A stretch of DNA of 64,000 nt from an uncultured Gammaproteobacteria bacterium (GCA_964450885.1 CAYVFE010000002.1:15192-79191); one strand, 5' to 3'; shown: positions 4,389 to 51,645, numbered from the stretch's first letter. Notes: generated by a model from the letters alone, not told the origin. Numbers and translations are program-made.

Positions 4389-4398
4389 AATCTGTAAT

Positions 4399-8457: not shown

Positions 8458-9414
8458 TTAAAGCCATTTTTTGTAATAGAAGATCAAAAATGCGATACCC
8501 CAGATAATAAGAGTTCCCCATATGAGATATGCAAATATAAATGGGTTATCCTGAAAAGGAAGTGCGATGTTCATTCCGTAAATTCCTCCTATCACCGTCG
8601 GAATTGATAGTAAAATAGTCATAACTGTCAGAAGCTTAATTATCTTATTCAAATTATTTGTAAATATAACCTGATAAGAATCCCTGACACCACGAATACT
8701 CTTGACACTTAGTTTACAAAGATCTGCCGACTGTCTAAATCCGATCATAAGGTCCTCTAGAATGTCTTTATCCTCTTCATGAATACTTATATATTTCTTG
8801 GCGACAATCGTCTCAAGAGAATTATTCATCAAAACGAGTGCCGAAATATATTGATTTAGTATTTCTTCGCTTTCCGCAAGCACAATAAAGTCTTTACTAT
8901 CGATTCTTTTTAACTCGCGCCTTCCACGGGGAACCTTATTACTAACTTGTTTCGTTTTTAACGTGTACTCCTGCGCAACCCTAAGTAGAAGCTTTAGGAC
9001 AAGCTTGATTTTCTGGGTAGTAGCTATCTTTGTGGCCTGATCTATCATCTTGTCGATGAGGGGATTTACAGTCGGAGATATCGTAATTAGATATTTGTCT
9101 GTAAGAATTATCGCCATAAGCTCTGTATAAAGCTCTTCGTTCTCTCCGGTTGGGTAACGGGTGTATATGATAAATCCCTCTTCCTGTCTCTCTACGCGGG
9201 GTAGTTCGTAACGATCAAGTGCGTCCCGAAGATCCGCCACCTGCAGACCTGTAAGCTCAGCAATCTTTTCAATATCCTCATTCGTCGCTTTATCGACATT
9301 TATCCAGCTTCCTGGTTTTGGAGTGCTCGTTTTCTTGAATTTCTTGTCTTTTAATGTTTTATAAAAAATCGATAGCATGAATTTATTGTAACAAAAAAGA
9401 AGACTTGTCAACAA
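8458..9414 (-). CDS. corA: CorA-family magnesium/cobalt transporter
   Basis: C-terminal two TM helices with the YGMN signature (IYGMNIALPF). Start may be the downstream Met (MLSIFYK). Confidence 0.8.
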   Translation of the reverse strand: MLTSLLFCYNKFMLSIFYKTLKDKKFKKTSTPKPGSWINVDKATNEDIEKIAELTGLQVADLRDALDRYELPRVERQEEGFIIYTRYPTGENEELYTELMAIILTDKYLITISPTVNPLIDKMIDQATKIATTQKIKLVLKLLLRVAQEYTLKTKQVSNKVPRGRRELKRIDSKDFIVLAESEEILNQYISALVLMNNSLETIVAKKYISIHEEDKDILEDLMIGFRQSADLCKLSVKSIRGVRDSYQVIFTNNLNKIIKLLTVMTILLSIPTVIGGIYGMNIALPFQDNPFIFAYLIWGTLIIWGIAFLIFYYKKWL

Positions 9415-13132: not shown

Positions 13133-13283
13133 TTAATATCACCTCCTTTCGATTTATTACTAATGTTAGCAGTACGCATATAAAATCCTTGTAAGAAAAC
13201 TAACATTAATGTGTAAGTTGAAAGTCTTAGAGAAATTATTGTAATATTAATCTTTGCACAAGGGGAGGTGAGTGGTTGAACTC

Positions 13284-13733
13284 ATGGATAAAAATAAAAA
13301 CCTAACAACAGGAATAGTTATAGTTGCGATAATCGTTGTTGTGACTGTTGCTGCCGCTTTTTATCAGCAGAGTGTAACTACCCAAACATCGGAACTTGTC
13401 GTAAATGAACAAGAATTAAATCATACCAATCCATCAAATTATGAAAGTGGTACATATGAGGCTACTGGAAATTATATTTCCCCGGGGGGAGCTGAAGAAA
13501 TAGATGTAACGCTTACGATCGAAGATGGTGTTGTTGTAGATTCACATGTGGAGCCGAGAGCAACAAGAGACATCTCTGTAGTTATGCAAAATGACTTTGC
13601 AGATAACTACAAAGAATTTGTCATAGGAAAAAGTATTGATGAGGTTAGTCTCACAAAGGTCTCTGGATCATCGCTTACTCCAAATGGATTTAATGACGCA
13701 GTCGAGAAAATCAAAGGACAGGCAAGATCGTAG
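13284..13733 (+). CDS. Membrane-anchored FMN-binding domain protein (candidate ApbE substrate)
   Basis: N-terminal TM anchor. C-terminal KVSGSSLTPNGF resembles the FMN_bind flavinylation motif D-x-x-(S/T)-G-A-(T/S). Encoded immediately upstream of apbE. Start ambiguous: GTG 13272 (ORF track) or ATG 13284. Confidence 0.5.
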   Translation: MDKNKNLTTGIVIVAIIVVVTVAAAFYQQSVTTQTSELVVNEQELNHTNPSNYESGTYEATGNYISPGGAEEIDVTLTIEDGVVVDSHVEPRATRDISVVMQNDFADNYKEFVIGKSIDEVSLTKVSGSSLTPNGFNDAVEKIKGQARS

Positions 13734-27479: not shown

Positions 27480-27708
27480 AATTTATTTATAGACTCTTCT
27501 TGCTGTAATATGCAAATTTGCTTGTTGCATATTCAGCTTAGATGAGTGGTACCCGACCTATAAATATGTTAAGTAGGGTAAACACTATTTACGACCTTTC
27601 AAAAATAGGGCCGAAGACTACATTGTAAGCATATTTGACTATTTGTCAAGTCTTATAGGATAGATTGTAAACTGATCAATATCTGCTAAAATATGAAGGT
27701 GCGATTTT

Positions 27709-27790
27709 GCCGAGGTGGTGAAATTGGTATACACGCAGCCTTGAGGTGGCTGTGCCGCAAGGTGTGCAGGTTCAAGTCCTGTCCTCGGCA
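27709..27790 (+). tRNA. tRNA-Leu (anticodon GAG)
   Basis: GCCGAGGTGGTGAAATTGGTA...CAGCCTTGAGGTGGCTG...GGTTCAAGTCCTGTCCTCGGCA. Long variable arm. ORF-track CDS 27746..28999 overextends across it. Confidence 0.7.
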
Positions 27791-27883
27791 CCTAGTAAAA
27801 GCTTAGGCTTAGCATTTCGGCCAGATGAAACATCAGGCCTCAATTTGACAGCCTGCATTTACTTTTTCAAAATGCTAAAGCAT

Positions 27884-27988
27884 TTTGACTGTCGTAAATT
27901 CGATAGAATTTACGAAATAAGGAGGATGAGGATAAATGTTGAAGATCCGATCTATCGGATCGAAAACGATATCCTGCATCCGACGCTT
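27884..27988 (+). repeat. tRNA-leader structured element, copy A (immediately 5' of tRNA-Val TAC)
   Basis: Hairpin CGTAAATTC/GAATTTACG, conserved core AAATAAGGAGGATGAGGATAAATGTTGAAG, hairpin ATCCGAT-ct-ATCGGAT, conserved tail CGAAAACGATATCCTGCATCCGACGC. See finding. Confidence 0.6.
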
Positions 27989-28062
27989 GGACGATTAGCT
28001 CAGCTGGCTAGAGCACCTCGTTTACACCGAGGGTGTCGGGGGTTCAAATCCCTCATCGTCCA
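27989..28062 (+). tRNA. tRNA-Val (anticodon TAC)
   Basis: GGACGATTAGCTCAGCTGGCTAGAGCACCTCGTTTACACCGAGGGTGTCGGGGGTTCAAATCCCTCATCGTCCA. Confidence 0.75.
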
Positions 28063-28066
28063 CTGG

Positions 28067-28999
28067 ATGCTTATAGTTACAGGAACAGTTGCATATGACT
28101 ACATCATGGACTTTCCTGAGAGTTTTTCGGATCATATTCTTCCAGACAGCCTTCATAAGATAAACCTTTCATTTATAGTAGATAGATTCGAAAAAAGACG
28201 TGGAGGAACCGCAGGGAATGCGTCATATTCACTAGGTTTACTTAAGATCCCGCATAAATTAGTCTCATTTGCCGGCAAAGACTTTGATGACTACGCAAAA
28301 ACCTTCAAAAAATTAAAAATCGATATCTCGAAAATCAACATCGACAAGAAAAACTATACGGCGACAGGTTTTGCTATGACTGACAAATCGGATAACCAGA
28401 TATGGGGGTATTTTTATGGGGCAGCAATTAATTCCTCGAAGACAAACCTGAGCTTTGCAGACCCGGAAAAAGACCTCGTGCTGGTAGGTCCCAGTGGTGC
28501 AAGAGGATCTATGGCTACTGTAAATGAATGCATAAAGTATAAGATCCCCTATATGCTGGACCCTGGATTCATCTTGACCGAGGTTAGTGCTTACGATCTT
28601 ACAAAAGCTGTCAAAAACTCTACCTATGTGATAGGTAATGATTATGAAATTGAGCTTATTTCAAATAGAGTCAAAGGCTGGGAAAAGATAAAGAGAAAAA
28701 AGACTGTGATAAAGACTCTTGGAAAAGACGGCGCAGAGATAGAAGAGGATGGTAAAACGATAAAAATAGAACCCTCAAAAGCAAAAAGGGCAGTAGACCC
28801 CACCGGAGCGGGTGACGCGTGGAGATCGGGGTTTCTGGCAGGGTTACACATGAATTTAGACCTCAGAACTGCAGGCAGGATGGGAGCAGTTGCAGCATCT
28901 TTTGCGGTAGAGCACTATGGAACACAAGAACATAGATATTCTATAGCAGAATTCAAAAAACGGTATAGAAAAAACTATAATGAAGTGTTAAACTTTTGA
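28067..28999 (+). CDS. PfkB-family carbohydrate/nucleoside kinase (probable adenosine kinase)
   Basis: C-terminal PfkB signature DPTGAGDAWRSGFLAG. Start trimmed to Met 28067 (MLIVTGTVAYDY), downstream of the two tRNAs. Directly followed by ahcY, suggesting adenosine salvage. Confidence 0.65.
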   Translation: MLIVTGTVAYDYIMDFPESFSDHILPDSLHKINLSFIVDRFEKRRGGTAGNASYSLGLLKIPHKLVSFAGKDFDDYAKTFKKLKIDISKINIDKKNYTATGFAMTDKSDNQIWGYFYGAAINSSKTNLSFADPEKDLVLVGPSGARGSMATVNECIKYKIPYMLDPGFILTEVSAYDLTKAVKNSTYVIGNDYEIELISNRVKGWEKIKRKKTVIKTLGKDGAEIEEDGKTIKIEPSKAKRAVDPTGAGDAWRSGFLAGLHMNLDLRTAGRMGAVAASFAVEHYGTQEHRYSIAEFKKRYRKNYNEVLNF

Positions 29000-29002
29000 C
29001 TT

Positions 29003-30274
29003 ATGGCGACGGGAAAAGACTACGATGTAAAGGATCTAAAGCTTGCTGAGAGTGGAAAATTAAAAATAGAATGGTCAGAACAACAGATGCCGGTCCTGCG
29101 ATCGATATCCGAAAGATACGCGAAAGAAAAACCTCTAAAAGGACTTACCATCGCAGCTTGTCTCCACATAACCTCAGAAACAGCAAACCTGCTTATAACA
29201 CTTAAAAAAGGTGGCGCAAAGGTTGTCGCCACTGCCTCAAACCCACTTTCTACCCAAGACAATGTAGCAGCAGCACTCGTGAAGCACTATGGAATATCAA
29301 CCTATGCGATAAAAGGAGAAAATAGTAAGTCTTATTATTCACATTTGAACTCAGCGTTAGATAGCAGACCACAAATCACTATGGATGATGGAGCAGATCT
29401 AGTCCATCTCCTACATACAAAAAGACAGGATCAGCTCAACGGGATCTTAGGATCCTCAGAGGAAACAACGACAGGAGTTATCAGACTCAAGGCTATGGAA
29501 AAAGATGGAGCACTAAAGCTCCCTGTCATCGCGGTAAATGATTCGGACACGAAGCATCTTTTTGACAACCGTTATGGAACTGGCCAGTCGACCATAGATG
29601 GCATAATAAGAGCTACAAATATCCTTCTCGCCGGTAAAACCTTTGTCGTCTGTGGATATGGCTGGTGCAGTAGGGGAATTGCTATGCGTGCAAAAGGAAT
29701 GGGCGCTCACGTCATAGTGACGGAGGTCGATCCGGTCCGCGCGCTGGAAGCTGCTATGGATGGATTTATGGTCATGAGGATCAAAGAAGCTGTCAAAAAT
29801 GGAGATATCTTCGTAAGCGCAACGGGCGACAAGCACGTGATAACCGTAGACCATGTAAATAACATGAGGGATGGTGCGATCATCGCAAATTCCGGTCATT
29901 TTGATGTCGAGATAGATATGGCAGGGATAGAAAAGGAGAAAAAGAGCAAAAGAAGGATCCGAAATTCACTGGACGAATATGTCCTCAAAAACGGTAAAAA
30001 ACTTTATATCCTGGGTGAGGGTAGACTGGTCAATCTCGCAGCAGCTGAGGGTCATCCTGCAGAGGTTATGGATATGTCGTTCGCGAATCAGGCATTTGCC
30101 GCAGAATACTTTATCAAGAATAAAGGAAAGCTTGAGAACAAAGTATATGTGTTACCAAAAGAACTCGACAAAAAAGTCGCCAGTATCAAGTTAAAAGCCA
30201 TGGGAATATCCATAGACACGTTGACGAAAGAGCAATCGACCTACCTCTCCTCATGGAACGAAGGCACGCAATAG
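29003..30274 (+). CDS. ahcY: Adenosylhomocysteinase (S-adenosyl-L-homocysteine hydrolase)
   Basis: 423 aa. NAD-binding [11 protein letters not shown], and AhcY-conserved regions throughout. Confidence 0.9.
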
Positions 30275-30350
30275 TTCTTCTTGCAATAAAAATCGCACAG
30301 TGAAATAATATTCTAAGTATCTGTAATTTACGGAAGGAGGTGAATAAAAC

Positions 30351-30761
30351 ATGATGGACGTAAATTGGATCGCAATTATTATCGCTGCTATTGTCTACAA
30401 TGCCATAGGATTCTTCTGGTACTCTGACTCTCTTTTTGGAAAAATGTGGAGAGCCGAATCAGGCATGACAAAAGACAAAATCACAGAGGGATCAAAGAAT
30501 ATGGGTCGGATGTTCGTATTCATGGCAGTAGGATCTATAATCATGGCATATGTTCTCTCCGTAGTCTTTTCTGTATTTGAGGCAAATACGCTTTCTGCGG
30601 GTCTAACAGGAGCTTTTTGGCTTTGGCTGGGATTTGTAGCAACTATAATGTTAAATAGCGTAACTTACGAGATGAAATCCTGGCGTTATTATTTTATAAA
30701 TGCTGGTTATCAGCTCGTTGGGATTCTTGCTATGGGAGCAGTTCTTGTGCTTTGGGTATAA
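30351..30761 (+). CDS. Hypothetical 4-TM membrane protein (DUF1761-like)
   Basis: 136 aa, hydrophobic. SD AAGGAGGTGAATAAAACATG. Confidence 0.4.
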   Translation: MMDVNWIAIIIAAIVYNAIGFFWYSDSLFGKMWRAESGMTKDKITEGSKNMGRMFVFMAVGSIIMAYVLSVVFSVFEANTLSAGLTGAFWLWLGFVATIMLNSVTYEMKSWRYYFINAGYQLVGILAMGAVLVLWV

Positions 30762-30841
30762 AAGCGATTTGAACCCAAGAAAACAATTCCGCTGATGCGG
30801 ATTGTTTTCTTTTTTTAAATTCTCAAATTTGACTAACAAAC

Positions 30842-31129
30842 CTACGCTATCATCAATGATATTAGCGCAATAAGTCCTAATGATTCCCAATAGTTGATCT
30901 CCCTAAAGCCAAATACGAGTGGTACTATATTATTCCACAAAGCCTTGAACCAGAAATTTAAGACGGGAATAAGAATAAGTGCGATAGCATAGACTGCTAT
31001 GAATTCACCGAATGAACCGATCGGCTCAGTAGGCAACAGATATGGATCAGCAACCATCCCGAACAGAAGAACAGCAAGAATGGAAATCGCAACCAGCGGT
31101 TTGTTGACCTTTTTTTCTTTAGTGGCCAT
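30842..31129 (-). CDS. Hypothetical small membrane protein
   Basis: 95 aa, 3 predicted TM helices. Confidence 0.3.
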   Translation of the reverse strand: MATKEKKVNKPLVAISILAVLLFGMVADPYLLPTEPIGSFGEFIAVYAIALILIPVLNFWFKALWNNIVPLVFGFREINYWESLGLIALISLMIA

Positions 31130-31159
31130 ATAATATCACCTCCCTCTAGATTTAAACTG

Positions 31160-31231
31160 AGCGGGAGACGGGATTTGAACCCGCGACCTCCTCGTTGGCA
31201 ACGAGGCGCTCTACCACTGAGCTACTCCCGC
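31160..31231 (-). tRNA. tRNA-Gly (anticodon GCC)
   Basis: Reverse complement GCGGGAGTAGCTCAGTGGTAGAGCGCCTCGTTGCCAACGAGGAGGTCGCGGGTTCAAATCCCGTCTCCCGCT. Confidence 0.75.
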
Positions 31232-31330
31232 AGCGTCGGAACGCAGAATGATGCTTTCGATCTGTTTAAAATCAGATCTTCAGCTTTCATTCTCTTCCTC
31301 CTTATTTCAAAACTCTAAAGAGTTTTGACA
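31232..31330 (-). repeat. tRNA-leader structured element, copy D (5' of tRNA-Gly on the minus strand)
   Basis: Minus-strand sense: TGTCAAAACTCT-tt-AGAGTTTTGAAATAAGGAGGAAGAGAATGAAAGCTGAAGATCTG-attttaaa-CAGATCGAAAGCATCATTCTGCGTTCCGACGCT then the tRNA. Confidence 0.6.
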
Positions 31331-31511
31331 AATTGCTGCGCAATTTATGTATTTTAATTTTTAAAAGACCTTTTATCTTCCTTATTTAGACTCCGCTATA
31401 CGTAATCGGCAGTAATCTCGCAAAGCGAGATTAAGTTGCGAAAAAGCCGACATGATGAATGAAGTCAGGTGTTCCACCTGACGAAATGTGAATGTCGTGA
31501 CTTTTTCGCTG

Positions 31512-31584
31512 TGCCGAGACCAGGAATCGAACCCGGATAACGTGTTCTTCAGACACGCGCCTTGACCAACTTGGCAATCTCGGC
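31512..31584 (-). tRNA. tRNA (anticodon GAA, Phe) - assignment tentative
   Basis: Reverse complement GCCGAGATTGCCAAGTTGGTCAAGGCGCGTGTCTGAAGAACACGTTATCCGGGTTCGATTCCTGGTCTCGGCA. 73 nt, T-loop GGTTCGATTCC. Unusual D-arm. Confidence 0.5.
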
Positions 31585-31683
31585 TCGTCGGAATGCAGGA
31601 TAGCGTTTTCGAATTTAGCTAAAACTAAATTCTTCAACATTCATCCTCATCCTCCTTACTTCAAAATACTTAGTATTTTGACA
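31585..31683 (-). repeat. tRNA-leader structured element, copy C (5' of the tRNA at 31512-31584 on the minus strand)
   Basis: Minus-strand sense: TGTCAAAATACT-aa-GTATTTTGAAGTAAGGAGGATGAGGATGAATGTTGAAGAATTTAG-tttta-gCTAAATTCGAAAACGCTATCCTGCATTCCGACGAG then the tRNA. Confidence 0.6.
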
Positions 31684-31856
31684 ATTAACTTGTTAAATTG
31701 CAAAGCAATTTTTCTCTAAAAAAGTAATTCCGTTTCAGCGAAATTAAGTTGCGAAGCAGCAAGCCAGAAAGCGAAAATCCGATCTAGTCGGATTGGAACG
31801 TCAAGGCTTTGACTGATTCGTATGTAGTATAGTGAATTTTCAGGCAAAACTCAATA

Positions 31857-32171
31857 TTAAGAAAGTTTTCTAGCTCTTCTATAATGGAAGGCAAAAAGCG
31901 CAGATCCTACCACGAGGAATGTAATTGAGCTTGATATATCAGTAACTTCTTTAACCTTTCTTTCACGCGAAAGCTCTTCTAGACATTTATCTTGAGGCTG
32001 AGGGTAGCTGCAGCGTCCTGCTTCATAAGGCAAATAGTAGTTATCCAGAAACACCTTTCTGACTCCGTAGTCAGACAATTTGAATACGCCTATTATGAGA
32101 AGAATTATCCCTATGGCTGAAAAGACATAAAAGTATGCAGTTCTTATAGAATGGCCCAAATTAGTTGCCAT
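31857..32171 (-). CDS. Hypothetical small membrane protein
   Basis: 104 aa, two TM helices and a Cys-containing loop. Confidence 0.3.
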   Translation of the reverse strand: MATNLGHSIRTAYFYVFSAIGIILLIIGVFKLSDYGVRKVFLDNYYLPYEAGRCSYPQPQDKCLEELSRERKVKEVTDISSSITFLVVGSALFAFHYRRARKLS

Positions 32172-32226
32172 AACTAAATAATAGTAAAAATTGCCAAAAT
32201 ATACAAACTTTCTGTCGAAAATCGTT

Positions 32227-32308
32227 GTGCCCGGGAGAGGATTTGAACCTCCACATCCATGGGATACAGCGTTCTGAACACTGCGCGTCTACCATTTCGC
32301 CACCCGGG
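32227..32308 (-). tRNA. tRNA-Leu (anticodon CAG)
   Basis: Reverse complement GCCCGGGTGGCGAAATGGTAGACGCGCAGTGTTCAGAACGCTG-long variable arm-GGTTCAAATCCTCTCCCGGGCA. Confidence 0.7.
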
Positions 32309-32443
32309 CATAAAAATCAGTTAACTTTTTTAATTTTACCTCATTTTGACTTTAGAATAAACCAAATATCTGTATTACTAATTTATAGTTTGATTACCTT
32401 AAATACCTTGACACCAAAACGTGAAAATGGCAGGATGTAGGAT

Positions 32444-33037
32444 ATGGGTAGGAAAATCATTTTAACCGGTGCTTATTTCTTTAGCTCACTAGTACTACTT
32501 CTAATACTCACAGCAGCGCTGCTTTCGACGCTTTTTAGCTCAAATGAGCTACACAAGACACTAATCTACGATAGTGATGTTCAAAAACCCAAATATCAGG
32601 CATTACCCGAAAAGGTCAAAGAAGTTACTACAACTGCTACGACAGAAGATGGCAGGGTAGGAGCACTTGAAAGATTTTTTGCTGGTTACGAGTCGCCACT
32701 TGAACCACATGCTCAGCTAATTGTCGATGAAGCTGATAAGTATGGCATGGACTATAGACTGGTTCCAGCTATCGCAATGAAGGAGAGCACGCTTTGTCAT
32801 AAGATAATCAAAAATACACACAACTGCTGGGGATACGGGATATATGGAGACAAAGTAACTTACTTTGATAACTACGAAGAGGGAATCCGTACGGTCTCCA
32901 AAGGTCTGGGAGAAAGATATATCGGGATCGGACTCGTCGATCCATATGAAATTATGACTAAGTATAATCCAGTAAGTACTGGTTCGTGGGCCGAAACTGT
33001 CACTTTTGTGATGGAAAAGATATCCACACGTCTATAA
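32444..33037 (+). CDS. Membrane-anchored putative peptidoglycan hydrolase-like protein (glucosaminidase/GH73-like fold), paralog 1
   Basis: N-terminal TM. Region LERFFAGYESPLEPHAQLIVDEADKYGMDYRLVPAIAMKESTLC resembles the ESxxG-containing helix of FlgJ/GH73-type muramidases. Paralogous to 33238..33801. Low certainty. Confidence 0.35.
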   Translation: MGRKIILTGAYFFSSLVLLLILTAALLSTLFSSNELHKTLIYDSDVQKPKYQALPEKVKEVTTTATTEDGRVGALERFFAGYESPLEPHAQLIVDEADKYGMDYRLVPAIAMKESTLCHKIIKNTHNCWGYGIYGDKVTYFDNYEEGIRTVSKGLGERYIGIGLVDPYEIMTKYNPVSTGSWAETVTFVMEKISTRL

Positions 33038-33237
33038 TTAGCCTCAAAACTGGCCCAACAGCCTGTAGTTTTACCCCTTGACAAACCCATAGTTACTGCT
33101 ATAATACGCATTAGGTCCTAAGGTAGCCCAAAACTACTTTAGGATTTTTTTATGGTTTGACTATAGTAATTCTATAGATAAGCCTCTTCTATATTTTCCC
33201 CAAAGTTTTAGTAATCATCAATCTGCCTTTTGACGGA

Positions 33238-33801
33238 TTGAAAGTTACAAAAACTATGAAAAGAATACTTATAACAGTCGTGATAATTATTATTACGGCC
33301 CTAGTATTGCCACAAAATGCAATGGCTTTTGAGAAGCAACAAACAGCTTCTGCGAGGCTTGCTATAACTATTGAAAACGAAAAGTCTGACGATATACGTG
33401 TGCAGGCTTTAGAGAACATCTTTGCAAAATACAATTCACCACTTGCAGGAGAGGGTAAATCGTATGTTGAACTTGCCGATAAGAACGGCGTTGACTGGAA
33501 GTTACTTCCGTCTATCGCAGGGCTTGAGTCATCTTTTGGTAAGCGCCTGATGCCTAATTCATATAACGCGTATGGGTGGGGTGGAGGACACATTTACTTT
33601 GACTCATGGTCGGATGGAATTGACACTATCACAAAGTCTCTTAAGACACGCTACTATGCACGTGGGGCGGATACAGTGTGGACGATCGGTCCTATATATG
33701 CTGAGTCTCCAACATGGGCTGTACGCGTAAACTCTTTTATGGAGAAAATCGAGAAAGAATACGTCGATCTGCTTCGCAATGAAGTAGTGATGACTATCTA
33801 A
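33238..33801 (+). CDS. Paralog 2 of the putative peptidoglycan hydrolase-like protein
   Basis: LENIFAKYNSPLAGEGKSYVELADKNGVDWKLLPSIAGLESSFG ... YGWGGG parallels 32444..33037. Confidence 0.35.
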   Translation: MKVTKTMKRILITVVIIIITALVLPQNAMAFEKQQTASARLAITIENEKSDDIRVQALENIFAKYNSPLAGEGKSYVELADKNGVDWKLLPSIAGLESSFGKRLMPNSYNAYGWGGGHIYFDSWSDGIDTITKSLKTRYYARGADTVWTIGPIYAESPTWAVRVNSFMEKIEKEYVDLLRNEVVMTI

Positions 33802-33848
33802 TTTGTTGATTGGAAAAACTGAGCGTTTTCATAGTATAATTCACCTTA

Positions 33849-33929
33849 CGCCCGGGTGGTGAAATGGTAGACGCGCTGGTTTTAGGAACCAGTACCGAAA
33901 GGTGTGAAGGTTCAAGTCCTTTCCCGGGC
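33849..33929 (+). tRNA. tRNA-Leu (anticodon TAG)
   Basis: GCCCGGGTGGTGAAATGGTAGACGCGCTGGTTTTAGGAACCAG-long arm-GAAGGTTCAAGTCCTTTCCCGGGCA. Confidence 0.7.
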
Positions 33930-33930
33930 A

Positions 33931-34027
33931 CTACGTCGGAATGCAGGATAGCGCTTTCAATCCGATAAATCGGATTTTCAGCCTTAATCCTCATCCTCCT
34001 TACTTCAAAAAGCTGATGCTTTTTGAC
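33931..34027 (-). repeat. tRNA-leader structured element, copy E - inverted, abutting the 3' end of tRNA-Leu(TAG)
   Basis: Minus-strand sense: TGTCAAAAAGC-atca-GCTTTTTGAAGTAAGGAGGATGAGGATTAAGGCTGAAAATCCGAT-tt-ATCGGATTGAAAGCGCTATCCTGCATTCCGACGTA. Same architecture as copies A-D but not followed by a tRNA on its own strand. Confidence 0.55.
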
Positions 34028-34102
34028 AGAAAAATATAACATTAGAGCTCTTAGGAAAAAGTCTAACTTTACAAACCTAACCTCAAACACTATAATATCC
34101 AA

Positions 34103-34987
34103 ATGGCAAAAGACACGAAAACAACCAAACAAAAAAGCCCTGCTGCAAAACAAGAGCAGAAAAAAGAACTCGTGCGCCGCGATGACGGCACTATCGAATT
34201 AAATATTACGGTTCCTGCTGCAACAGTCCAAAAGGAAAGAGGCAAGATCGAAGACGCACTAGTCAAAGGCATAGAGCTTCCTGGTTTTAGAAAGGGAATG
34301 GCACCAAGAGATCTAGCGTTAAAAAAAATCTCTGAGGAAAAAATCCGCGAAGAGCTGCTTCGTGAAGTAATTACAAATGAATATAGAAAAGCAGTTGAAA
34401 AGCACAAACTTCAACCTGTTATAAATCCACAGATACATATCGAGGCATTCGAGAATGGTCAGGATTTGCAGTTTACTGCAGAAATTGCCGAAGAACCCAA
34501 GGTTGAATTAGGTGATTACAAAAAAGCCATAAAAGATGTCAGCGCAAAAGGAAAGATCGTCACAGAGAAAGGCAAAGAGCCGCAGAAACCGTCAATCGAT
34601 GCTGTGATTGCCGCCGGAATGTCTCAGGTAACCGTCAAAATCCCCAACGTAATCATCGAACGCGAGGTCAGCAGACTATTATCCCAAGTAATTGATGAAG
34701 TAAAACAGCTAGGCATGACTCTGGAAAACTATCTTGATTCAAAAAAGATCTCTGTAGAACAGCTGAGAGAAGAGTACAAGAATAGGGCGGAAAGAGACAT
34801 AAAACTTGAATTCTTCTTGAGAAAAGTCGCTGATGAAGAAAAGATAACGGTCACAGCAGACGATATTACTGCTGCTATCGCAAAAATTGAGGACAAGGAT
34901 CAACAGGAAGAAATCAAGAAAAATCCATACCTTGTGGCAAGTATCATAAGACAACAAAAAACTATTGATTTCTTGACTCAAATTTGA
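34103..34987 (+). CDS. tig: Trigger factor (short form, apparently lacking the PPIase domain)
   Basis: Ribosome-binding signature LPGFRKGMAPRDL (TF GFRxGxxP motif), then a TF C-terminal-like arm. Only 294 aa. Confidence 0.6.
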   Translation: MAKDTKTTKQKSPAAKQEQKKELVRRDDGTIELNITVPAATVQKERGKIEDALVKGIELPGFRKGMAPRDLALKKISEEKIREELLREVITNEYRKAVEKHKLQPVINPQIHIEAFENGQDLQFTAEIAEEPKVELGDYKKAIKDVSAKGKIVTEKGKEPQKPSIDAVIAAGMSQVTVKIPNVIIEREVSRLLSQVIDEVKQLGMTLENYLDSKKISVEQLREEYKNRAERDIKLEFFLRKVADEEKITVTADDITAAIAKIEDKDQQEEIKKNPYLVASIIRQQKTIDFLTQI

Positions 34988-35019
34988 GGAATTAGCCTCA
35001 ATATGTTATAATCTAGGGC

Positions 35020-35631
35020 ATGAAATCCAACGCCAACATAATAGGCTCAAGCCTTACAGAGGCAGGAGAAGGTCTATCACAAGGCCTTAAGAGTCTATTT
35101 GAACAAACTCACAAAACAGCTACCGGACAGCTGAGCGAAGCACGAAAAGATGCTCAATCCCAGGTATTTGGACTTGAAAAAGACCTAAAAGAAGGAGATG
35201 AGATGGATCTATCGGGAAGTGAGGCAGAAACAAAAAAACCTATCAGCGCTGAGCACCAATCATACTTTAGAGAAATCATTTCTACCCCGACAAGAGCGGA
35301 ACACGAAGACCGGGCTCAGCTAAAGGTACAGATTGAGGAAATACGAATCGAAATAAAAAAGTTAAAGGATGCATCAGCAGAGATGGAGATAGTCTTTAAA
35401 GAGGTCTCTACCCAGCAGACTCCTGAAAAACCTGGCAAATATCACCTCAATTTTTATGAGTGGGTATTTCTGACTATCCAGAATGCAAGACAAAGGATGG
35501 AAGAAGTAAATACACTGGGATCAATGGTAAGCAATAGGAAGAAAGAAAAACAGTATCTTGCGATGAGCAAGAAGCACGGAACGAGCTTCTCACTAAATAA
35601 TGAGCGCGCGATAGCACGACAGTCAGGCTGA
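35020..35631 (+). CDS. Hypothetical coiled-coil protein
   Basis: 203 aa, charged, no recognisable motif. Confidence 0.35.
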   Translation: MKSNANIIGSSLTEAGEGLSQGLKSLFEQTHKTATGQLSEARKDAQSQVFGLEKDLKEGDEMDLSGSEAETKKPISAEHQSYFREIISTPTRAEHEDRAQLKVQIEEIRIEIKKLKDASAEMEIVFKEVSTQQTPEKPGKYHLNFYEWVFLTIQNARQRMEEVNTLGSMVSNRKKEKQYLAMSKKHGTSFSLNNERAIARQSG

Positions 35632-35691
35632 TAAATTTTTCATTCTCAATTCTCCTTTATTAGTTTTTTTTTCGTGGGAAAAATAGGTAGA

Positions 35692-35775
35692 GGAGACGGA
35701 TTTGATGTATTGGGGCCGCGAAAATTCGCGAGCGTTTCGTGATGTGCACGACCCTTTTATCAAAATCCGTCTCCG
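35692..35775. repeat. Large inverted repeat GGAGACGGATTTTGAT...ATCAAAATCCGTCTCC enclosing an inner CGCGAAaaTTCGCG palindrome, at the left edge of the GC-rich island
   Basis: 15-16 bp arms read directly from the sequence, about 50-nt spacer. Lies 3' of the minus-strand ORF 35799..36275. Confidence 0.5.
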
Positions 35776-35798
35776 CATCTTTGCGAAATCAGTCGCCC

Positions 35799-36275
35799 TT
35801 AGGCGAGTGCGTAACCATGCCCGCGTCGGTACGAGCGTTCCCTGCGGTCCAGACGGGCCTTCCTGCGCTTGTTGCGCGAGTTCTCAGTCCTGTTGTGGAC
35901 CAGATGATTGAGGGCGGTAACCCTCACAGCCTTGCTGCCAAGCGTGGTGCGTGTCTCGATGACGAGAATGCCGGGTTCGTGCACGAATGCACCTGAACGG
36001 GACTGCGGCTTGCGCAACCTGACGATCTTGTACGCCACGAGCGGTTCGTTTCCCTCGAGAGGGAAGAGCGACAGTGCGACCATCTGGTCGTTGACTGGGC
36101 GCTCCCATACCGTCAGGTCCACACGGACACGATGGACTTCCCAGTTGCCCTCCTGAGCGGGTACCACCTCATAGGTGATGCCGTCCCCGAATATCTTCGG
36201 CAGGATGCCCCCTTCGACGACCGCCGAAAGGTTGTTGATGGCAACGGGAAGATCCGTAAATGGCCTCTTTGCCAT
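35799..36275 (-). CDS. Hypothetical 158-aa protein with an Arg/Lys-rich C-terminal tail, encoded in a compositionally foreign (GC-rich) island
   Basis: Good SD (GGAGGTGTAGAAAATGGC). Non-repetitive, beta-rich-looking sequence ending ...NRTENSRNKRRKARLDRRERSYRRGHGYALA. Other-frame ORFs in this block look like GC-driven noise. Confidence 0.4.
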   Translation of the reverse strand: MAKRPFTDLPVAINNLSAVVEGGILPKIFGDGITYEVVPAQEGNWEVHRVRVDLTVWERPVNDQMVALSLFPLEGNEPLVAYKIVRLRKPQSRSGAFVHEPGILVIETRTTLGSKAVRVTALNHLVHNRTENSRNKRRKARLDRRERSYRRGHGYALA

Positions 36276-36540
36276 TTTCTACACCTCCAGGTGTACTGAA
36301 CTCTGGCGTTGACGATAGGATGGTGCGCCATGCGGCGCAGGGTCTTTCTGACCGGAAAGTTGATGATTGATGTCTTTTATTCCCGGAGAGTTTTTTGCCG
36401 GGAAAACCAATATCCCAATAACACCTCTTTCTTTTGGGGCTGGATTTGTTTGGTTCCCCAATTCTGAGTATATAGTCTATACCCAGAGTAGGAGAACCAA
36501 ATAATAATTTCGCAAAGATTTTAATGTGCAAAAAGACAAT

Positions 36541-36575
36541 AAAAAAACTCCCCGTGCATTTTGGGGAGTTGTTCG
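36541..36575 (-). terminator. Rho-independent terminator (minus-strand sense AACTCCCC-aaaatgcac-GGGGAGTTTTTTTATTG) upstream of the island promoter region
   Basis: 7-bp GC-rich stem plus a U7 run on the minus strand. Would insulate the island gene from read-in. Confidence 0.5.
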
Positions 36576-36715
36576 ATTGGTCTTTTAATTATTCGACAAA
36601 TAACTCCCCCTACGCCCCAAGGACGAAACGGAAAGTATTTTTAATCGAATAATTGCAAACCATAACGCAATGTTAGCAAACGAAATGACCGCCGTCAAGA
36701 CCTTTATGCTGGATA

Positions 36716-36868
36716 TTGACATACATTTTAATGAGTGTTATTCTACATTTAATGAACACGATACTTTCTCACAAGCTGTCACTTAGCGCTCTTCTGGAGC
36801 TTGAGTAACCGCTTGGGAGGAAAGTACTGATTTTCTTATAAACCTCCCACTAGGGGAGGTTTTTTTTG
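36716..36868 (+). promoter_or_regulatory. Candidate promoter (TTGACA-17-TATTCT) plus attenuator-type leader for the small-ORF cassette
   Basis: -35 TTGACA at 36716 and -10 TATTCT 17 nt later. The leader contains CTTGGGAGG (segment 1), CCTCCCAC (segment 2), GGGGAGG plus T7 (segment 3), forming mutually exclusive antiterminator (1:2) and terminator (2:3) helices. Segment 3 doubles as the SD of ORF 36874. Confidence 0.45.
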
Positions 36869-36873
36869 TGGTT

Positions 36874-37101
36874 ATGGAAAGAAATAATTATATACCTGAA
36901 GACCAAATCTCGCATTACGATGCGATGGGTAATCCTGTAGCAAAGCCTGAGTGGAGAGCGCAATACAGAAAATCAGCAGAAACATTTGTCGTAAACGAAA
37001 TCGTAGACAGGCAAATCAGCGAAATATTGGAGGGCGAATTCATAATTAATCCTACAGTAGACACTCAGATAGAAGAGATTATGAAAGAAGCAGATTTTTA
37101 G
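36874..37101 (+). CDS. Small acidic hypothetical protein (75 aa), first of three
   Basis: ATG 36874 (the track lists GTG 36868). MERNNYIPEDQISHYDAMGNPVAKPEWRAQYRK... Confidence 0.4.
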   Translation: MERNNYIPEDQISHYDAMGNPVAKPEWRAQYRKSAETFVVNEIVDRQISEILEGEFIINPTVDTQIEEIMKEADF

Positions 37102-37117
37102 AAGGAGGTGATAATTT

Positions 37118-37375
37118 ATGGAAAGTAGAGAAACGGGTCCAATTTTTAATCTACAAGCCAGTGAAACAAGAGGGGGTGGATATAAGGCCTTGGAAGTGGA
37201 GGCGATAGAAAATAGCGTCTCAAGATATAACTTAGAAAAAGAACGGGAACAGAGGATGGAAGAAGCGGGTTATGATCCCAGGATCTTGGCTACACGTGCA
37301 GAAATGGAATATAGAGGGTTTGAGATGCAACAAAGCGCAGAATATCCAGTTGGAGAGAGCGCCCAGAATATATAA
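37118..37375 (+). CDS. Small acidic hypothetical protein (85 aa), second of three
   Basis: Preceded by AGGAGGTGATAATTTATGGAA, identical to the initiation region of the third ORF. Confidence 0.4.
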   Translation: MESRETGPIFNLQASETRGGGYKALEVEAIENSVSRYNLEKEREQRMEEAGYDPRILATRAEMEYRGFEMQQSAEYPVGESAQNI

Positions 37376-37488
37376 TATTGACAGACACTGCCGGCAGTGT
37401 TAAATTAGTCATTAATGAAAACAGGCTTGATAGTAAATAGTTATTGGTTTAGCTTCCGCTAACGCGGAGGTATTAACCTGTTTTAAAT

Positions 37489-37526
37489 TACCTTCGCAGA
37501 CTCAAAAGAGTCGGGGCGGAGGTTTT
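37489..37526 (+). terminator. Intrinsic terminator/attenuator hairpin (CCTTCGC...GCGGAGG plus T7) in the leader of the third small ORF
   Basis: Upstream alternative hairpin CTTCCGC-taac-GCGGAGG (37452-37470) can compete, giving an attenuator-like arrangement. Confidence 0.4.
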
Positions 37527-37551
37527 TTTATTTGAGAGGAGGTGATAATTT

Positions 37552-37821
37552 ATGGAACAAAGATTAACCGGGCTAGCTTGGATAACGAAAACGAAGGAAG
37601 TATATGATTCTATCCCTGGAGGTTCGAACTACCTGATAGACCCTTGCGAGATAAATATGGAACTTGTCAGAGAGAAGTGTGAGAACTGGACTGGCGAGGA
37701 ATGCGCTCTGGGCGTAGTTATGAAAGAAGGAATAGCGTATTGTCCGCTTCAAGAACAAAAACAAATTACTCTTAGAAATAGTTTTGGCTCTAACGAAGCC
37801 CCAACCCAAGATACTGCTTAG
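37552..37821 (+). CDS. Small Cys-containing hypothetical protein (89 aa), third of three
   Basis: MEQRLTGLAWITKTKEVYDSIPGGSNYLIDPCEINMELVREKCENWTGEECALGVVMKEGIAYCPLQ... with four Cys. SD AGGAGGTGATAATTTATGGAA. Confidence 0.4.
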   Translation: MEQRLTGLAWITKTKEVYDSIPGGSNYLIDPCEINMELVREKCENWTGEECALGVVMKEGIAYCPLQEQKQITLRNSFGSNEAPTQDTA

Positions 37822-37870
37822 CTTCATTGTCTAGGTTATTTTATTCTGGTAAAATACGAATGCTTTAAAA

Positions 37871-37969
37871 GTCAAAAAGCATCAGCTTTTTGAAGCAAGG
37901 AGGATGAGGATAAATGTTGAAGAATTTATCTCTGGTAAATTCGAAAACGATATCCTGCATCCGACGCAA
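37871..37969 (+). repeat. tRNA-leader structured element, copy B (5' of tRNA-Val GAC)
   Basis: GTCAAAAAGC-atca-GCTTTTTGAAGCAAGGAGGATGAGGATAAATGTTGAAGAATTTA-tctctgg-TAAATTCGAAAACGATATCCTGCATCCGACGCAAG then the tRNA. Confidence 0.6.
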
Positions 37970-38043
37970 GGACGGTTAGCTCAGTTGGTTAGAGCGTCGC
38001 ATTGACATTGCGGAGGCCACTGGTTCGAATCCAGTATCGTCCA
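37970..38043 (+). tRNA. tRNA-Val (anticodon GAC)
   Basis: GGACGGTTAGCTCAGTTGGTTAGAGCGTCGCATTGACATTGCGGAGGCCACTGGTTCGAATCCAGTATCGTCCA. Confidence 0.75.
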
Positions 38044-38100
38044 CTAAAGCAGTCTGAGCGTCGTGCCCCAAGGGCACTTGCCGACACTCGGTGGCGCATA

Positions 38101-38141
38101 CACATTGCGGAGGCCATAGGCATCGATCCAGTATCGTCCAC
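38101..38141 (+). pseudogene. Degenerate duplicate of the 3' half of tRNA-Val(GAC)
   Basis: CACATTGCGGAGGCCATAGGCATCGATCCAGTATCGTCCAC versus the tRNA's GACATTGCGGAGGCCACTGGTTCGAATCCAGTATCGTCCAC. T-loop destroyed, acceptor 3' strand identical. Confidence 0.5.
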
Positions 38142-38163
38142 AAGTGTTTGATATACTAGAATC

Positions 38164-38736
38164 ATGACCCGAGATGGCGCATATCAAACACTCACCGTAT
38201 ACGTACAGTCCCAAAACCTCATAAGGCATCACCTAGCTACAGAGGTTGCAATGCGCTCACTTGCGCAGCACTTATCAAAATCAAAGAATCAACTACTGGA
38301 CATAGAGAAGTGGGGAATAACAGGCCTATTACATGATGCTGACTATGAACTGACAAGAAAGACTCCAGAAAAGCACACCTTGTATCTTGAGGAAAAGCTC
38401 GGAGAGCAAATCCCGAAAGACATAATGTATGCTATAAAGGCGCATAACTATGCTTACACTAAAATCGAACCAACGAGTCTCATGGATTGGGCGCTTTATA
38501 CATGTGATGAGCTGACAGGATTTATAGTTGCTTGCACACTCGTCCTCACGGATAAAAAAATCAAGAGTCTATCTACCGATTTCGTACTAAATAAGATGAA
38601 TGATAATGCATTCGCAAAAAGCGTGAACCGTGAACAGATAAAACTTTGCGAGAAAAGTCTGGGAATTCCTCTTTCCGAGTTCATTATGATAGTCCTTAGC
38701 TCAATGCAGGCTATTGATACTACGCTTGGACTTTAG
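38164..38736 (+). CDS. HD-domain phosphohydrolase
   Basis: HD motif region (ITGLLHDADYE) and additional His/Asp residues. 190 aa. Confidence 0.55.
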   Translation: MTRDGAYQTLTVYVQSQNLIRHHLATEVAMRSLAQHLSKSKNQLLDIEKWGITGLLHDADYELTRKTPEKHTLYLEEKLGEQIPKDIMYAIKAHNYAYTKIEPTSLMDWALYTCDELTGFIVACTLVLTDKKIKSLSTDFVLNKMNDNAFAKSVNREQIKLCEKSLGIPLSEFIMIVLSSMQAIDTTLGL

Positions 38737-50636: not shown

Positions 50637-50993
50637 ATGAAAACTGCCAGCGATCCACGACACACAGCACGACAAGAAGTTGTGCAAGGACTGTTCTCTC
50701 AAAGCTTTTTATCTCAAAAGACGAAAAACGAAAAGGTAAAATCTATCGTCGAAAAATTTGACCAGATTGATGAAATCATAAAAAAGGTCGCACCCGAATT
50801 TCCAGTAGATAAGATAAATCGCGTGGACTTGGCTATACTAAGACTTGCTGTCTTTGAGATAGAAATCGAGAAGAAAGAGCCACCAAAGGTAGTAATAGAT
50901 GAAGCTATAGAACTAGCGAAAGAATATGGAGGAGATTCATCTCCTGGATTTGTAAACGGAGCACTAGGAAAACTAATAAAGAAAAATGACTAA
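50637..50993 (+). CDS. nusB: Transcription antitermination factor NusB
   Basis: N-terminal RHTARQEVVQGLF and C-terminal ELAKEYGGDSSPGFVNGALGKL are NusB-like. 118 aa. Confidence 0.7.
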   Translation: MKTASDPRHTARQEVVQGLFSQSFLSQKTKNEKVKSIVEKFDQIDEIIKKVAPEFPVDKINRVDLAILRLAVFEIEIEKKEPPKVVIDEAIELAKEYGGDSSPGFVNGALGKLIKKND

Positions 50994-51645
50994 CATACCA
51001 GAATTTATAAATCCGGAATTATTTGATCTAGCTTTTACACATAGGTCTTATCTAAATGAATCAAATGGTGCAACTGAGTCAAATGAAAGGCTTGAGTTCT
51101 TGGGGGATAGTATCCTCTCATATATAGTCTCGACCCACATATTCAACGAATTCAAGGATAGAAAAGAGGGAGAACTTACAAGTCTTAGGTCTGTGCTTAC
51201 GAATACCGAGACTCTTTATGAGGTCGGAAAAAGGCTCAATCTAGGTCAAAATCTTAAGTTATCCAAAGGAGAAGAAGAGAGTGGAGGACGTGAAAGCAAG
51301 ACAATACTGGCAAATACTTATGAGGCTGTCGTAGGAGCTTTGTATCTTGACCAAGGAATAGATGCTGTCCGAAAATTCATCGAGGAAACGATAATATCGG
51401 ACATCGATAACATTGTTGCCTCACAGGGACTAAAGGATCCAAAAAGCGCTTTACAGGAATTCCTGCAGGAGAACCGGAAGATGTCTCCACGATACGAGGT
51501 ATTGGAGGAGAGTGGACCAGATCATGATAAGTTGTATGTGGTCGGGGTATTTGTGGAAGCAGAGCTCCTTTCAAAAGGCCAGGGTAAATCAAAGCAGGAT
51601 GCGGAAAAAAAGGCAGCTCACAACGCCCTAAAAACCCTGAGCTAA
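50986..51645 (+). CDS. rnc: Ribonuclease III
   Basis: RNase III signature ERLEFLGDSILS, catalytic acidic residues, C-terminal dsRBD. Confidence 0.9.
   Translation: MTNIPEFINPELFDLAFTHRSYLNESNGATESNERLEFLGDSILSYIVSTHIFNEFKDRKEGELTSLRSVLTNTETLYEVGKRLNLGQNLKLSKGEEESGGRESKTILANTYEAVVGALYLDQGIDAVRKFIEETIISDIDNIVASQGLKDPKSALQEFLQENRKMSPRYEVLEESGPDHDKLYVVGVFVEAELLSKGQGKSKQDAEKKAAHNALKTLS

Follow-up and report, generated by a model that had tools for sequence, protein, structure and literature searches.

A repeat family with a conserved fold at the borders of tRNA genes

Short, structured, multi-copy repeats in the extragenic DNA of bacteria are best known from the REP, BIME and REPIN elements of proteobacteria, which are mobilised by RAYT transposases, carry a conserved foot at the base of their hairpins and often occur as inverted pairs; they are inherited vertically over long periods, are co-transcribed with their neighbours and sometimes serve as terminators or in RNA stability. 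Comparable in size are the Correia elements of Neisseria, the ERIC/IRU elements and the RUP and BOX elements of Streptococcus, non-coding units of about 100-200 bp that are present in some strains and absent from others, and miniature transposable elements with inverted repeats (MITEs) of this RNA-folding kind give stable transcribed hairpins, are possible substrates of ribonuclease III (RNase III) and may carry fragments of promoters or terminators. A different source of small RNAs is the transcribed flank of tRNA genes, from which tRNA-processing nucleases release RNAs such as the 3'ETS-leuZ sponge of Escherichia coli. Traits of these systems seem to recur in a family of structured elements that adjoins tRNA genes in a 64-kb stretch of DNA from an uncultured bacterium (CAYVFE010000002.1:15192-79191, hereafter the window). 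The host is, as far as its sequence indicates, a Microgenomates-type bacterium, the sole named relative of the window trigger factor being a Levybacteria protein with 49% identity. No account of tRNA-flanking structured repeats in Patescibacteria was found in the literature searched, nor is the combination seen here described there, namely stems that are free in sequence and conserved in fold, GA motifs, a site exclusively at tRNA borders and mirror-image polarity.

The family is characterised by a common fold with covarying helices, by a strict rule of position and polarity at tRNA gene ends, by sites downstream of promoter-like sequences that are conserved in relatives, and by presence or absence at orthologous sites. 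Ten copies of about 95 nt each, here called A to J, were found in the window with a covariance model run with filters off (R2, the second of two models, built on 19 real matches); beyond these, R2 gave no match with E<0.4 over the 64 kb. The R2 E-values range from about 1e-14 to 3e-19 for copies A-G and amount to 2.5e-9 for I, 6e-8 for H and 4.5e-6 for J. A preliminary description had listed five copies, A to E, all of which exist within a few bases of where it had placed them, as matches of the other model (R1, E-values 2e-18 to 2e-23) show; as a total, five fell short by the copies F to J. R1 was built from six copies, with the apices of both variable hairpins trimmed for a gap-free seed alignment, a trimming that concerns the seed only. 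Copies F and G were first spotted by inspecting the flanks of the remaining tRNA genes; in all, ARAGORN and Rfam place ten tRNA genes in the window. The copies and one remnant are listed below, with helices numbered as in the fold described thereafter.

27890-27985 (+): copy A, subfamily 1; tail 3 nt before the 5' end of tRNA-Val-TAC (27989-28063); 98.3 bits, E=2e-23 with R1
37870-37966 (+): copy B, subfamily 1; tail 3 nt before the 5' end of tRNA-Val-GAC (37970-38044)
31586-31683 (-): copy C, subfamily 1; tail 1 nt before the 5' end of tRNA-Phe (31511-31584); inner half of a dimer with J
31234-31330 (-): copy D, subfamily 1, with P2 altered on both strands; tail 2 nt before the 5' end of tRNA-Gly (31159-31231)
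33934-34028 (-): copy E, subfamily 1, inverted; tail 2 nt past the 3' end of tRNA-Leu-TAG (33850-33931, +)
2424-2521 (-): copy F, subfamily 1, with P2 GAAUCAGAAU/AUUCUUGAUU; tail 2 nt before the 5' end of tRNA-Ala-GGC (2350-2421)
4393-4489 (+): copy G, diverged subfamily 1, inverted; tail 2 nt from the 3' end of tRNA-Leu-TAA (4492-4574, -)
27794-27890 (-): copy H, subfamily 2, inverted; at the 3' end of tRNA-Leu-GAG (27709-27792, +); E=2e-4 with R1, filters off
31411-31508 (+): copy I, subfamily 2, inverted; at the 3' end of tRNA-Phe (31511-31584, -); E=6e-3 with R1, filters off
31723-31820 (+): copy J, degenerate subfamily 2; outer half of the back-to-back dimer with C
32212-32223 (+): 12-nt remnant CTGTCGAAAATC of P1, namely its 5' foot; separated by 3 nt from the 3' end of tRNA-Leu-CAG (32227-32309, -)

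Aligned over about 100 nt, copies A-E show a mean column identity of 71%, with conserved blocks alternating with variable hairpins. The 15-nt core AAGGAGGATGAGGAT is exact in four of these five copies and has two mismatches in D, while the tail pattern was matched five times against a chance expectation of 0.34. All copies adopt one common minimum-free-energy architecture (z-scores of -3.9 to -6.5 against dinucleotide shuffles). It starts with the hairpin P1, whose stem has 8-10 bp, whose foot is conserved as U-C...G-A and whose apex is free; the linker AARUAA connects P1 to a rod made up of P2, P3 and P4, in which a tandem G.A motif, a single bulge and a GAA/GAA loop of symmetric shape are embedded. 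At the base of the rod, GGAG lies opposite CGAC of the tail and forms a G:C pair, tandem G.A/A.G and another pair; P2 follows with about 11 bp and a single-base bulge in its 3' strand, then a small internal loop, then P3 with 3-4 bp, the symmetric GAA/GAA internal loop and finally the variable hairpin P4, the segment between the GAA strands measuring 17-22 nt. The tail ends in ...CGACG, after which 1-6 nt lead to the tRNA. The earlier observations that the variable hairpins always pair, that GGATGAGGAT of the core is complementary to ATCCTGCATCC of the tail (the pairing contains one bulged G) and that D is changed in step on both sides were borne out, and covariation, reported before for three helices, extends as compensatory changes to every helix, the fourth of which, P3, had been missed.

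In subfamily 2, comprising H, I, J and copies in relatives, the GGAG/CGAC motif is replaced by a longer Watson-Crick helix of the type GCGAAAAAG...CUUUUUCGC; P1, P3, the GAA/GAA loop and P4 are retained and the rod is bordered by an A-tract and a U-tract. The main fold has an ensemble frequency of 0.23-0.36 in A, B and D and of 0.03-0.11 in C, E, F and G. Several readings of individual parts were rejected. P1 is not a generic terminator hairpin of this genome, TCAAAA...TTTTGA hairpins in the window being confined to the elements save for one looser match at 60413-60439. A k-turn or box C/D-like motif is contradicted by the tandem G.A lying within a continuous helix without a 3-nt bulge. For a self-cleaving ribozyme substituting for RNase P, no hammerhead core is present (GAUGA occurs, CUGA and the stem arrangement are wrong), and GGAUGAGG varies across copies together with its pairing partner, which speaks against a catalytic box. 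Pairing of leader and trailer around one tRNA, in the style of rRNA stems, was discarded as well since the tails of C and I are not complementary.

Covariation was assessed with relatives. Trigger-factor homologs of 66-81% identity gave access to syntenic contigs from about nine related genomes, and 32 copies were found with R2 in those contigs and the window together; R2 gave no match in L056, an outgroup genome with 54% identity in its trigger factor. In the alignment of the 32 copies, which was fitted to the covariance model and so favours structure, 92.4% of the cells are standard pairs compared with 58.9% for shuffled partners, changes on both sides occur at 29 of the 30 pairs, and the covariation score reaches 0.86 as against 0.22 for shuffles and 0.07-0.17 for partners slid by 1-3 columns. 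The 19-copy set gives the same picture. Both-sided changes affect 7 of 8 pairs in P1 and all 6 in P4, and even the pair closing the tandem G.A covaries (GC 27, AU 3, CG 1). Additionally, RNAalifold independently predicts the same helices, with compensatory changes in 27 of its 28 pairs, and P2 is wholly different in sequence among genomes (GGAUGAGGAU, GAAACCGACU, GAAGCAGCUUU, GGAAUAAUU and others), yet its partner strand always matches. Selection on structure is therefore well supported. Conserved as sequence are UGUC, AARUAAGGAG, GAA/GAA and CGACG.

The earlier suspicion that the family is undescribed held: with Rfam 15 at gathering score, no family matched the elements anywhere in the window, and at E<=10 over 27600-38200 the sole overlap was AaHKsRNA22 at chance level, with E=4.7 and 19.7 bits where the gathering score is 39.8. 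Outside the syntenic contigs, a scan of genome contigs with GAARYAAGGAG-N11-AANGYYGAAR returned 48 matches, all 48 of them ordinary ribosome-binding sites; the pattern was overly stringent for copies that have diverged and, against chance, not selective enough. A gapped pattern gave at least 120 matches in metagenome contigs; among the matches listed, only L070, L071 and L147 were real. The two scans together say little on breadth. No copies were present in the viral contigs, phage records or plasmids searched, and the family has so far been seen only in a small Microgenomates-like group.

As to position, the tail lies 1-6 nt from the end of a tRNA gene in 30 of the 32 copies, which divide equally: 15 precede a tRNA 5' end on the strand of that tRNA, and the other 15 adjoin a tRNA 3' end in inverted orientation. 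Only J and L179:3071-3165 depart from this; each forms the outer half of a back-to-back dimer, the inner half of which follows the rule. The tail of J points at the promoter-like site of tRNA-Phe (31854-31826, -) instead of a tRNA. Adjacency to tRNA genes is as claimed before, with gaps of 1-3 nt for A-E, and the copy behind tRNA-Leu-TAG was correctly placed, only that an arrangement shared by half of the family is no exception. Eight of the ten tRNA genes in the window adjoin a copy, tRNA-Leu-CAG has the remnant, and tRNA-Gln alone has nothing. Since the tRNAs with elements comprise two for Val, one each for Phe, Gly, Ala and Lys and four for Leu, no amino-acid specificity is apparent. Back-to-back pairs in the window are H and A (0 nt apart), I and D (diverging, 80 nt apart) and J and C (39 nt apart), and several more occur in L054, L055, L051 and L179, among them L054 5888-5984/5992-6091 and 7478-7581/7581-7678 as well as L179 2973-3071/3071-3165, with gaps of 0-7 nt. 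Copy G begins directly after the stop codon of a YdjM-family open reading frame (ORF, 3810-4388).

Other sequences were noticed at the same kind of site. In the outgroup L056, a different tandem repeat of about 23 nt with the consensus CACTTCAGTTTCGTTCAGCACAGG follows tRNA 3' ends (8870-8944, 13239-13311), and the leader of its tRNA-Val-TAC terminates in GCCGACGAA, which resembles the element tail; repeats may thus be drawn to tRNA flanks more widely in this bacterial group. Stand-alone GIY-YIG nuclease ORFs of 65-84 codons lie beside or between tRNA genes in L051 (8584-8781), L056 (4882-5136) and L058 (9447-9683), the one in L056 between tRNA-Phe and tRNA-Gly, where the window carries I and D. 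A link between these ORFs and the elements is possible.

Orthologous sites are filled in some lineages and empty in others. The spacer between tRNA-Leu-GAG and tRNA-Val-TAC measures 196 nt in the window, where it holds H and A, and 0-2 nt in L179 and L053; that between tRNA-Phe and tRNA-Gly measures 279 nt in the window (I, 80 nt and D) and 3 nt in L053. Among the lineages compared at the tRNA-Val-GAC site, copy B is confined to that of the window, being absent in L051, L053, L054 and L055, and J and C are absent at the orthologous site in L054 and L055. At the tRNA-Leu-CAG remnant, by contrast, a full copy is found at the orthologous site in L053, and the remnant may be the footprint of a deletion or excision. 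In a neighbour-joining tree of trigger factor, the window pairs with L179 and L054 with L053, with sisters differing in the elements between tRNA-Leu and tRNA-Val; placed on this tree, the filled and empty sites require at least two precise losses or several site-specific gains. Within the same syntenic 21 kb, copy number ranges from 1 to 8 across lineages. Cores are uniform within one genome: A, B, C, E and a copy at tRNA-Lys in L147, counted with the window genome, have identical core and tail, the copies at tRNA-Gly and tRNA-Phe of L051 share a different rod, and the cores of L051, L054 and L058 differ from those of the window. At the same time, B and E have the same P1, A and E the same P4, and P1 of A resembles P4 of B and C. 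Homogenised cores together with reshuffled P1 and P4 point to gene conversion or module exchange. The family is, on the evidence of these comparisons, dynamic, with insertion or loss and gene conversion. The earlier verdict that no recent repeat spread is involved therefore stands only in part: of the hallmarks of a MITE, terminal inverted repeats are indeed not found and target-site duplications are not clearly seen, while filled and empty orthologous sites, homogenised cores and exchanged hairpins tell against it.

Gene order around these sites has changed as well. The compact operon Leu-GAG/Val-TAC/Phe/Gly of L053 (6339-6667) is split in the window (27600-32400), where the Phe-Gly part is inverted and set apart by pfkB, ahcY and a DUF1761 gene; in L179, 58-311 holds Leu-GAG/Val-TAC/Phe, the contig ending after tRNA-Phe. 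It is plausible that inverted copies served as recombination points for the Phe-Gly rearrangement, and the elements would mark likely points of recombination or inversion in tRNA clusters. Fifty nt downstream of the intact tRNA-Val-GAC gene lies a 47-nt partial 3' half of it (38095-38141, +; about 85% identical to tRNA positions 29-75), which resembles the duplicates that integrative elements leave behind where they have attached, and fragments of tRNA-Val near the same gene also occur in L053 and L056. The pfkB-family ORF (27746-28999, + in the window; 3650-4897 in L049) stays open through copy A and tRNA-Val-TAC and is annotated with 415 residues as against 310 in L051; its start has probably been annotated some 100 codons upstream of the true one, an example of how the elements mislead gene callers.

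Indirect hints as to whether the copies would be read, and on which strand, come from promoter-like sites, from the pairs themselves and from the folding of precursors. Two of the promoter-like sites are conserved in relatives:

37827-37855 (+): promoter-like TTGTCT-17-TAAAAT upstream of copy B; consensus match, conserved in L054, there 10 nt from the tRNA
31826-31854 (-): promoter-like TTGAGT-17-TATACT upstream of tRNA-Phe and its copies J and C; likewise conserved, in both L054 and L055, there 12 nt from the tRNA

At the counterparts in L054 and L055, no element stands between promoter and tRNA. In the window, B at one locus and J and C at the other fill the interval from such a conserved promoter-like site to tRNA position +1 and hence the tRNA leader, from which we infer that they would be transcribed as part of it; for A, D and F, consensus -10 matches only were found. 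The proposal that the element belongs to a tRNA 5' leader is thereby supported for 5' copies; as a pure leader or promoter module, it leaves the 15 of 32 copies inverted at 3' ends and the outer dimer halves unexplained. In 5' copies, G.U pairs outnumber A.C combinations by 15 to 5, and the subfamily-1 copies of the window (A-G) fold more stably as sense than as antisense strand, by 2.5-10 kcal/mol; both observations fit an RNA read on the tRNA strand. The outer dimer halves J and L179:3071-3165 combined have 7 A.C and 2 G.U and look as if they were decaying. In folded precursors, element and tRNA cloverleaf form independently, with 2-6 unpaired nt between rod and acceptor stem.

Of the 15 copies at 3' ends, 12 belong to subfamily 2, and about 10 of these, when followed along the tRNA strand, finish their rod in a U run, mostly U4-6, paired with the A-tract (H has U3 followed by U5; L054:7581 and L055:6861 have U3 only). 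This layout looks like that of a bidirectional terminator. On the + strand, H carries TTGACA-17-CAAAAT (27845-27873) directed at A and tRNA-Val, a promoter-like site that would let the downstream tRNA restart past a terminator. As a general feature, a promoter within the element was rejected: TTGTCA-N17-GAARTA has a poor -10 box, TATCCT of the tail is part of the covarying P2, and the good internal match is found only in H and on the opposite strand. In L053, the reverse complement of the P1 foot, TTGACA, is followed after 17 nt by TATTAT ahead of a DUF5671 gene (7590-7616, - reading), and the element end may have been co-opted there as a -35 box; the same check mostly fails at other copies. 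At 34068-34105 (+), the trigger-factor gene starts 6 nt past a promoter-like TTTACA-17-TATAAT, too near for a Shine-Dalgarno sequence, so that its mRNA is probably leaderless; L179 has the same layout (TACAAT, 6 nt, ATG).

The account we favour, tentatively and with a probability slightly short of even, is that of a lineage-specific structured repeat of about 95 nt which colonises tRNA borders, travels as part of pre-tRNAs and is taken off them by RNase P and RNase Z. Copies at 5' ends would be transcribed from the tRNA's own promoter as a self-folding leader that leaves a few unpaired bases ahead of +1 and is cut off by RNase P, whereas copies at 3' ends and between tRNAs would be trailers and spacers freed by RNase Z and RNase P. 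RNase III possibly nicks the rods, which have about 25 bp with internal loops; a gene with Ribonuclease_3 and dsRBD domains lies at 50986-51645 (+) in the window, so the enzyme would be available to cut them if they are transcribed. Subfamily 2, with its rod between A-tract and U-tract, probably also terminates transcription in both directions. The family would spread and be lost at tRNA borders, with gene conversion homogenising its copies, and its fold would be kept by selection because the compact shape spares folding and processing of the tRNA, and perhaps also because spreading requires it. Since processing removes the insert, tRNA flanks would be a safe place for it. That the elements are transcribed, are cut by RNase P and RNase Z, act as terminators and spread in some such way is inference. 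If the account is right, the family would be a clear case of a repeat that lives in the transcribed tRNA flank and is erased from the mature product by processing enzymes of its host cell; it would illustrate how Microgenomates-type genomes of very small size put up with selfish or semi-domesticated RNA structures, and it would supply structured leaders and trailers of natural origin with which to study RNase P and RNase Z facing a helix 2-6 nt from the cleavage site.

Several observations weigh against this account. It leaves unexplained how copies arrive 1-5 nt from a tRNA with fixed polarity: at the 3' ends of terminal tRNAs, the strict spacing of 1-5 nt is not imposed by lack of space, so that a targeting step is needed. 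Strict polarity and spacing likewise hint at a step reading tRNA gene ends, which in the literature searched is not described for any small bacterial repeat. In 3' copies, 6 G.U stand against 6 A.C, with no strand bias, so that either strand may be the working one; these copies retain strand-specific purine motifs (GAA/GAA, and GGAG/CGAC in E and G) antisense to the tRNA, for which there is no obvious need in a trailer on the tRNA strand. A consensus terminator scan flagged none of the rods, their stems having internal loops. As regards spreading, gains and losses were placed on a neighbour-joining tree of one gene, terminal inverted repeats are lacking (what the ends have in common is limited to GTC(G/A)...CGAC, 4 nt), and flanks of filled and empty sites (cct/ctt at Leu|Val, ag/ct at Phe|Gly) show no clear target-site duplication, the spacers being too short for a firm answer. 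Neither transposase nor HUH/RAYT (Y1_Tnp) protein, integrase, recombinase or reverse transcriptase was detected with NCBIfam or Pfam in the 60 larger ORFs of the window, which code for housekeeping or unknown proteins, and Pfam labels of the genes called in relatives include no mobility domain except one resolvase in L055.

The polarity would be explained in a single step if the elements were independent small RNA genes, each read towards the tRNA, with RNase P making the 3' end at the tRNA or at an antisense tRNA-like fold and the RNA of about 100 nt acting in trans, for example by binding a protein. The tail indeed faces a 7-bp acceptor helix in both arrangements, antisense tRNA-Leu-TAA folds right after G as a cloverleaf-like junction with its acceptor stem intact, and the purine-rich non-Watson-Crick motifs have the same orientation in 5' and 3' copies. 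Candidate promoters are an extended -10-like TGTTATATT 4 nt upstream of E and TAAAAT or CAAAAT 13-20 nt upstream of F, B, D and A. Separate promoters, however, have no room where H and A abut at 0 nt and other dimers leave 0-7 nt, and the outer dimer halves have no tRNA at their tail. G.U pairs are not in excess in 3' copies, transcripts running antisense through tRNA genes would interfere with the expression of the tRNAs, and any single site can be empty in a sister lineage. Moreover, RNase P recognises the elbow formed by T-loop and D-loop of a tRNA, which the antisense tRNA lacks. Taken as a whole, this explanation appears unlikely. That antisense tRNA-Leu might act as a suppressor tRNA (anticodons CUA, UUA) is very unlikely, with the long arm on the wrong side and no ARAGORN call.

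A similar degree of doubt attaches to the idea of non-autonomous mobile DNA of the REPIN or MITE kind, in which a folded single strand is recognised by a transposase or recombinase encoded elsewhere in the genome and inserts at the inverted repeat of the acceptor stem, RNA being incidental. In its favour speak the occurrence as monomers or back-to-back dimers with tails at both outer ends (H and A, I and D, J and C, and those of L054 and L179), sites filled in one sister lineage and empty, with exact spacers of 0-3 nt, in the other, the terminal remnant at tRNA-Leu-CAG, the range of 1 to 8 copies in the syntenic 21 kb, the restriction to one narrow clade and the lack of strand bias in 3' copies. 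The missing mobility domains, with the single resolvase of L055 set aside, the missing terminal repeats and the lack of a clear duplication at the sites compared count against it. Furthermore, stems that are wholly different between copies of one genome and nonetheless paired are not what a sequence-reading transposase maintains, and the G.U excess of 5' copies and the strand of the conserved purine loops match one transcribed strand. A further proposal, which we consider rather improbable, is that of a new kind of mobile element, defined by its structure, that homes via the acceptor-stem helix, recognised in folded DNA or by way of an RNA intermediate, to exact tRNA borders (the sites of RNase P and RNase Z), its RNA being tolerated or used since processing excises it. 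In a bolder variant, released rods would be stable RNAs with 3' ends made by RNase P even at antisense tRNAs.

Far less probable is a role of the 5' copies as cis-regulatory leaders, i.e. as a switch for a ligand or protein or an attenuator controlling read-through or RNase P processing. Conserved unpaired or non-canonical positions (AARUAA, tandem G.A, GAA/GAA) beside variable helices are riboswitch-like, and the position just ahead of +1 is fixed. Against this, no terminator/antiterminator alternative is evident, and a single fold prevails in the ensemble of several copies; in sister lineages the element is missing from the corresponding tRNA, tRNA identities are many (Val, Phe, Gly, Ala, Lys), an inverted position at 3' ends applies to half of the family, and Rfam gives no riboswitch or T-box match at E<=10 in 27600-38200. 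Finally, a core serving as ribosome-binding site and start codon of a small peptide, suggested by an AUG 10 nt downstream of AAGGAGG in A, B and C, can practically be dismissed, as the AUG is absent or out of frame in D-G, the P4 segment of 17-22 nt varies by lengths that are not multiples of 3, the frames run into the tRNA, and the supposed Shine-Dalgarno sequence varies in relatives (GGAGAAAC, GGAAGAAU, GGAAUAGU) with its pairing kept. Correspondingly, the preliminary description was right in seeing no conserved ORF behind AAGGAGG; the SD-like motif that it noted is structural and not free, GGAG being paired with CGAC of the tail through a covarying closing pair.

How far, then, does the family resemble what has been described? 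From REP and REPIN elements it departs in that its stems differ among copies and are preserved by compensatory change instead of forming a near-identical shared palindrome, in that its units adjoin a tRNA with fixed polarity and carry a second, elaborate rod with GA motifs, and in that the scan of 60 window ORFs gave no RAYT/Y1 transposase domain. Compared with RNA-folding MITEs, terminal inverted repeats are missing, no clear target-site duplication is seen, the long inverted repeat (P2) is internal, differs between copies and forms a covarying long-range helix, and targeting of tRNA borders has no counterpart in the literature searched. The attC sites of integrons, too, are elements of recombination type for which fold counts and sequence does not, namely an imperfect hairpin with bulges whose terminal structure varies, but here there is no R''/R' core (RYYYAAC/GTTRRRY), no integrase in the scanned window ORFs and no cassette array, and orientations are mixed. 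With MALAT1/mascRNA and the tRNA-snoRNA dicistrons of plants the family would share an upstream RNA that ends where a tRNA or tRNA-like fold starts, which would explain the polarity of the tail; those systems are eukaryotic, and neither separate transcription nor cleavage at an antisense tRNA is in evidence here. RNAs of the 3'ETS-leuZ type, in turn, are single and locus-specific and have no shared fold, whereas the present family has many copies of one architecture on both sides of tRNAs. Subfamily 2 resembles bidirectional intrinsic terminators in its A-tract, GC-containing stem and U-tract directly past the tRNA 3' end; it differs from them in a stem of about 25 bp with conserved internal loops that is always followed by the P1 hairpin, in its shared ancestry with 5' leader copies devoid of a U-tract, and in not being called by a simple scan. 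By its defining features the family would accordingly be classed neither as MITE, REPIN or attC nor with any Rfam family. It does show the presence/absence polymorphism of mobile repeats, and B as well as J and C would, to judge from the promoter-like sites, occupy the place of a pre-tRNA leader between promoter and +1 on the tRNA strand. By analogy, the family seems closest in its workings to two known kinds, the structured small repeats (REP/BIME/REPIN, Correia, ERIC, BOX) and the spacers of pre-tRNAs.

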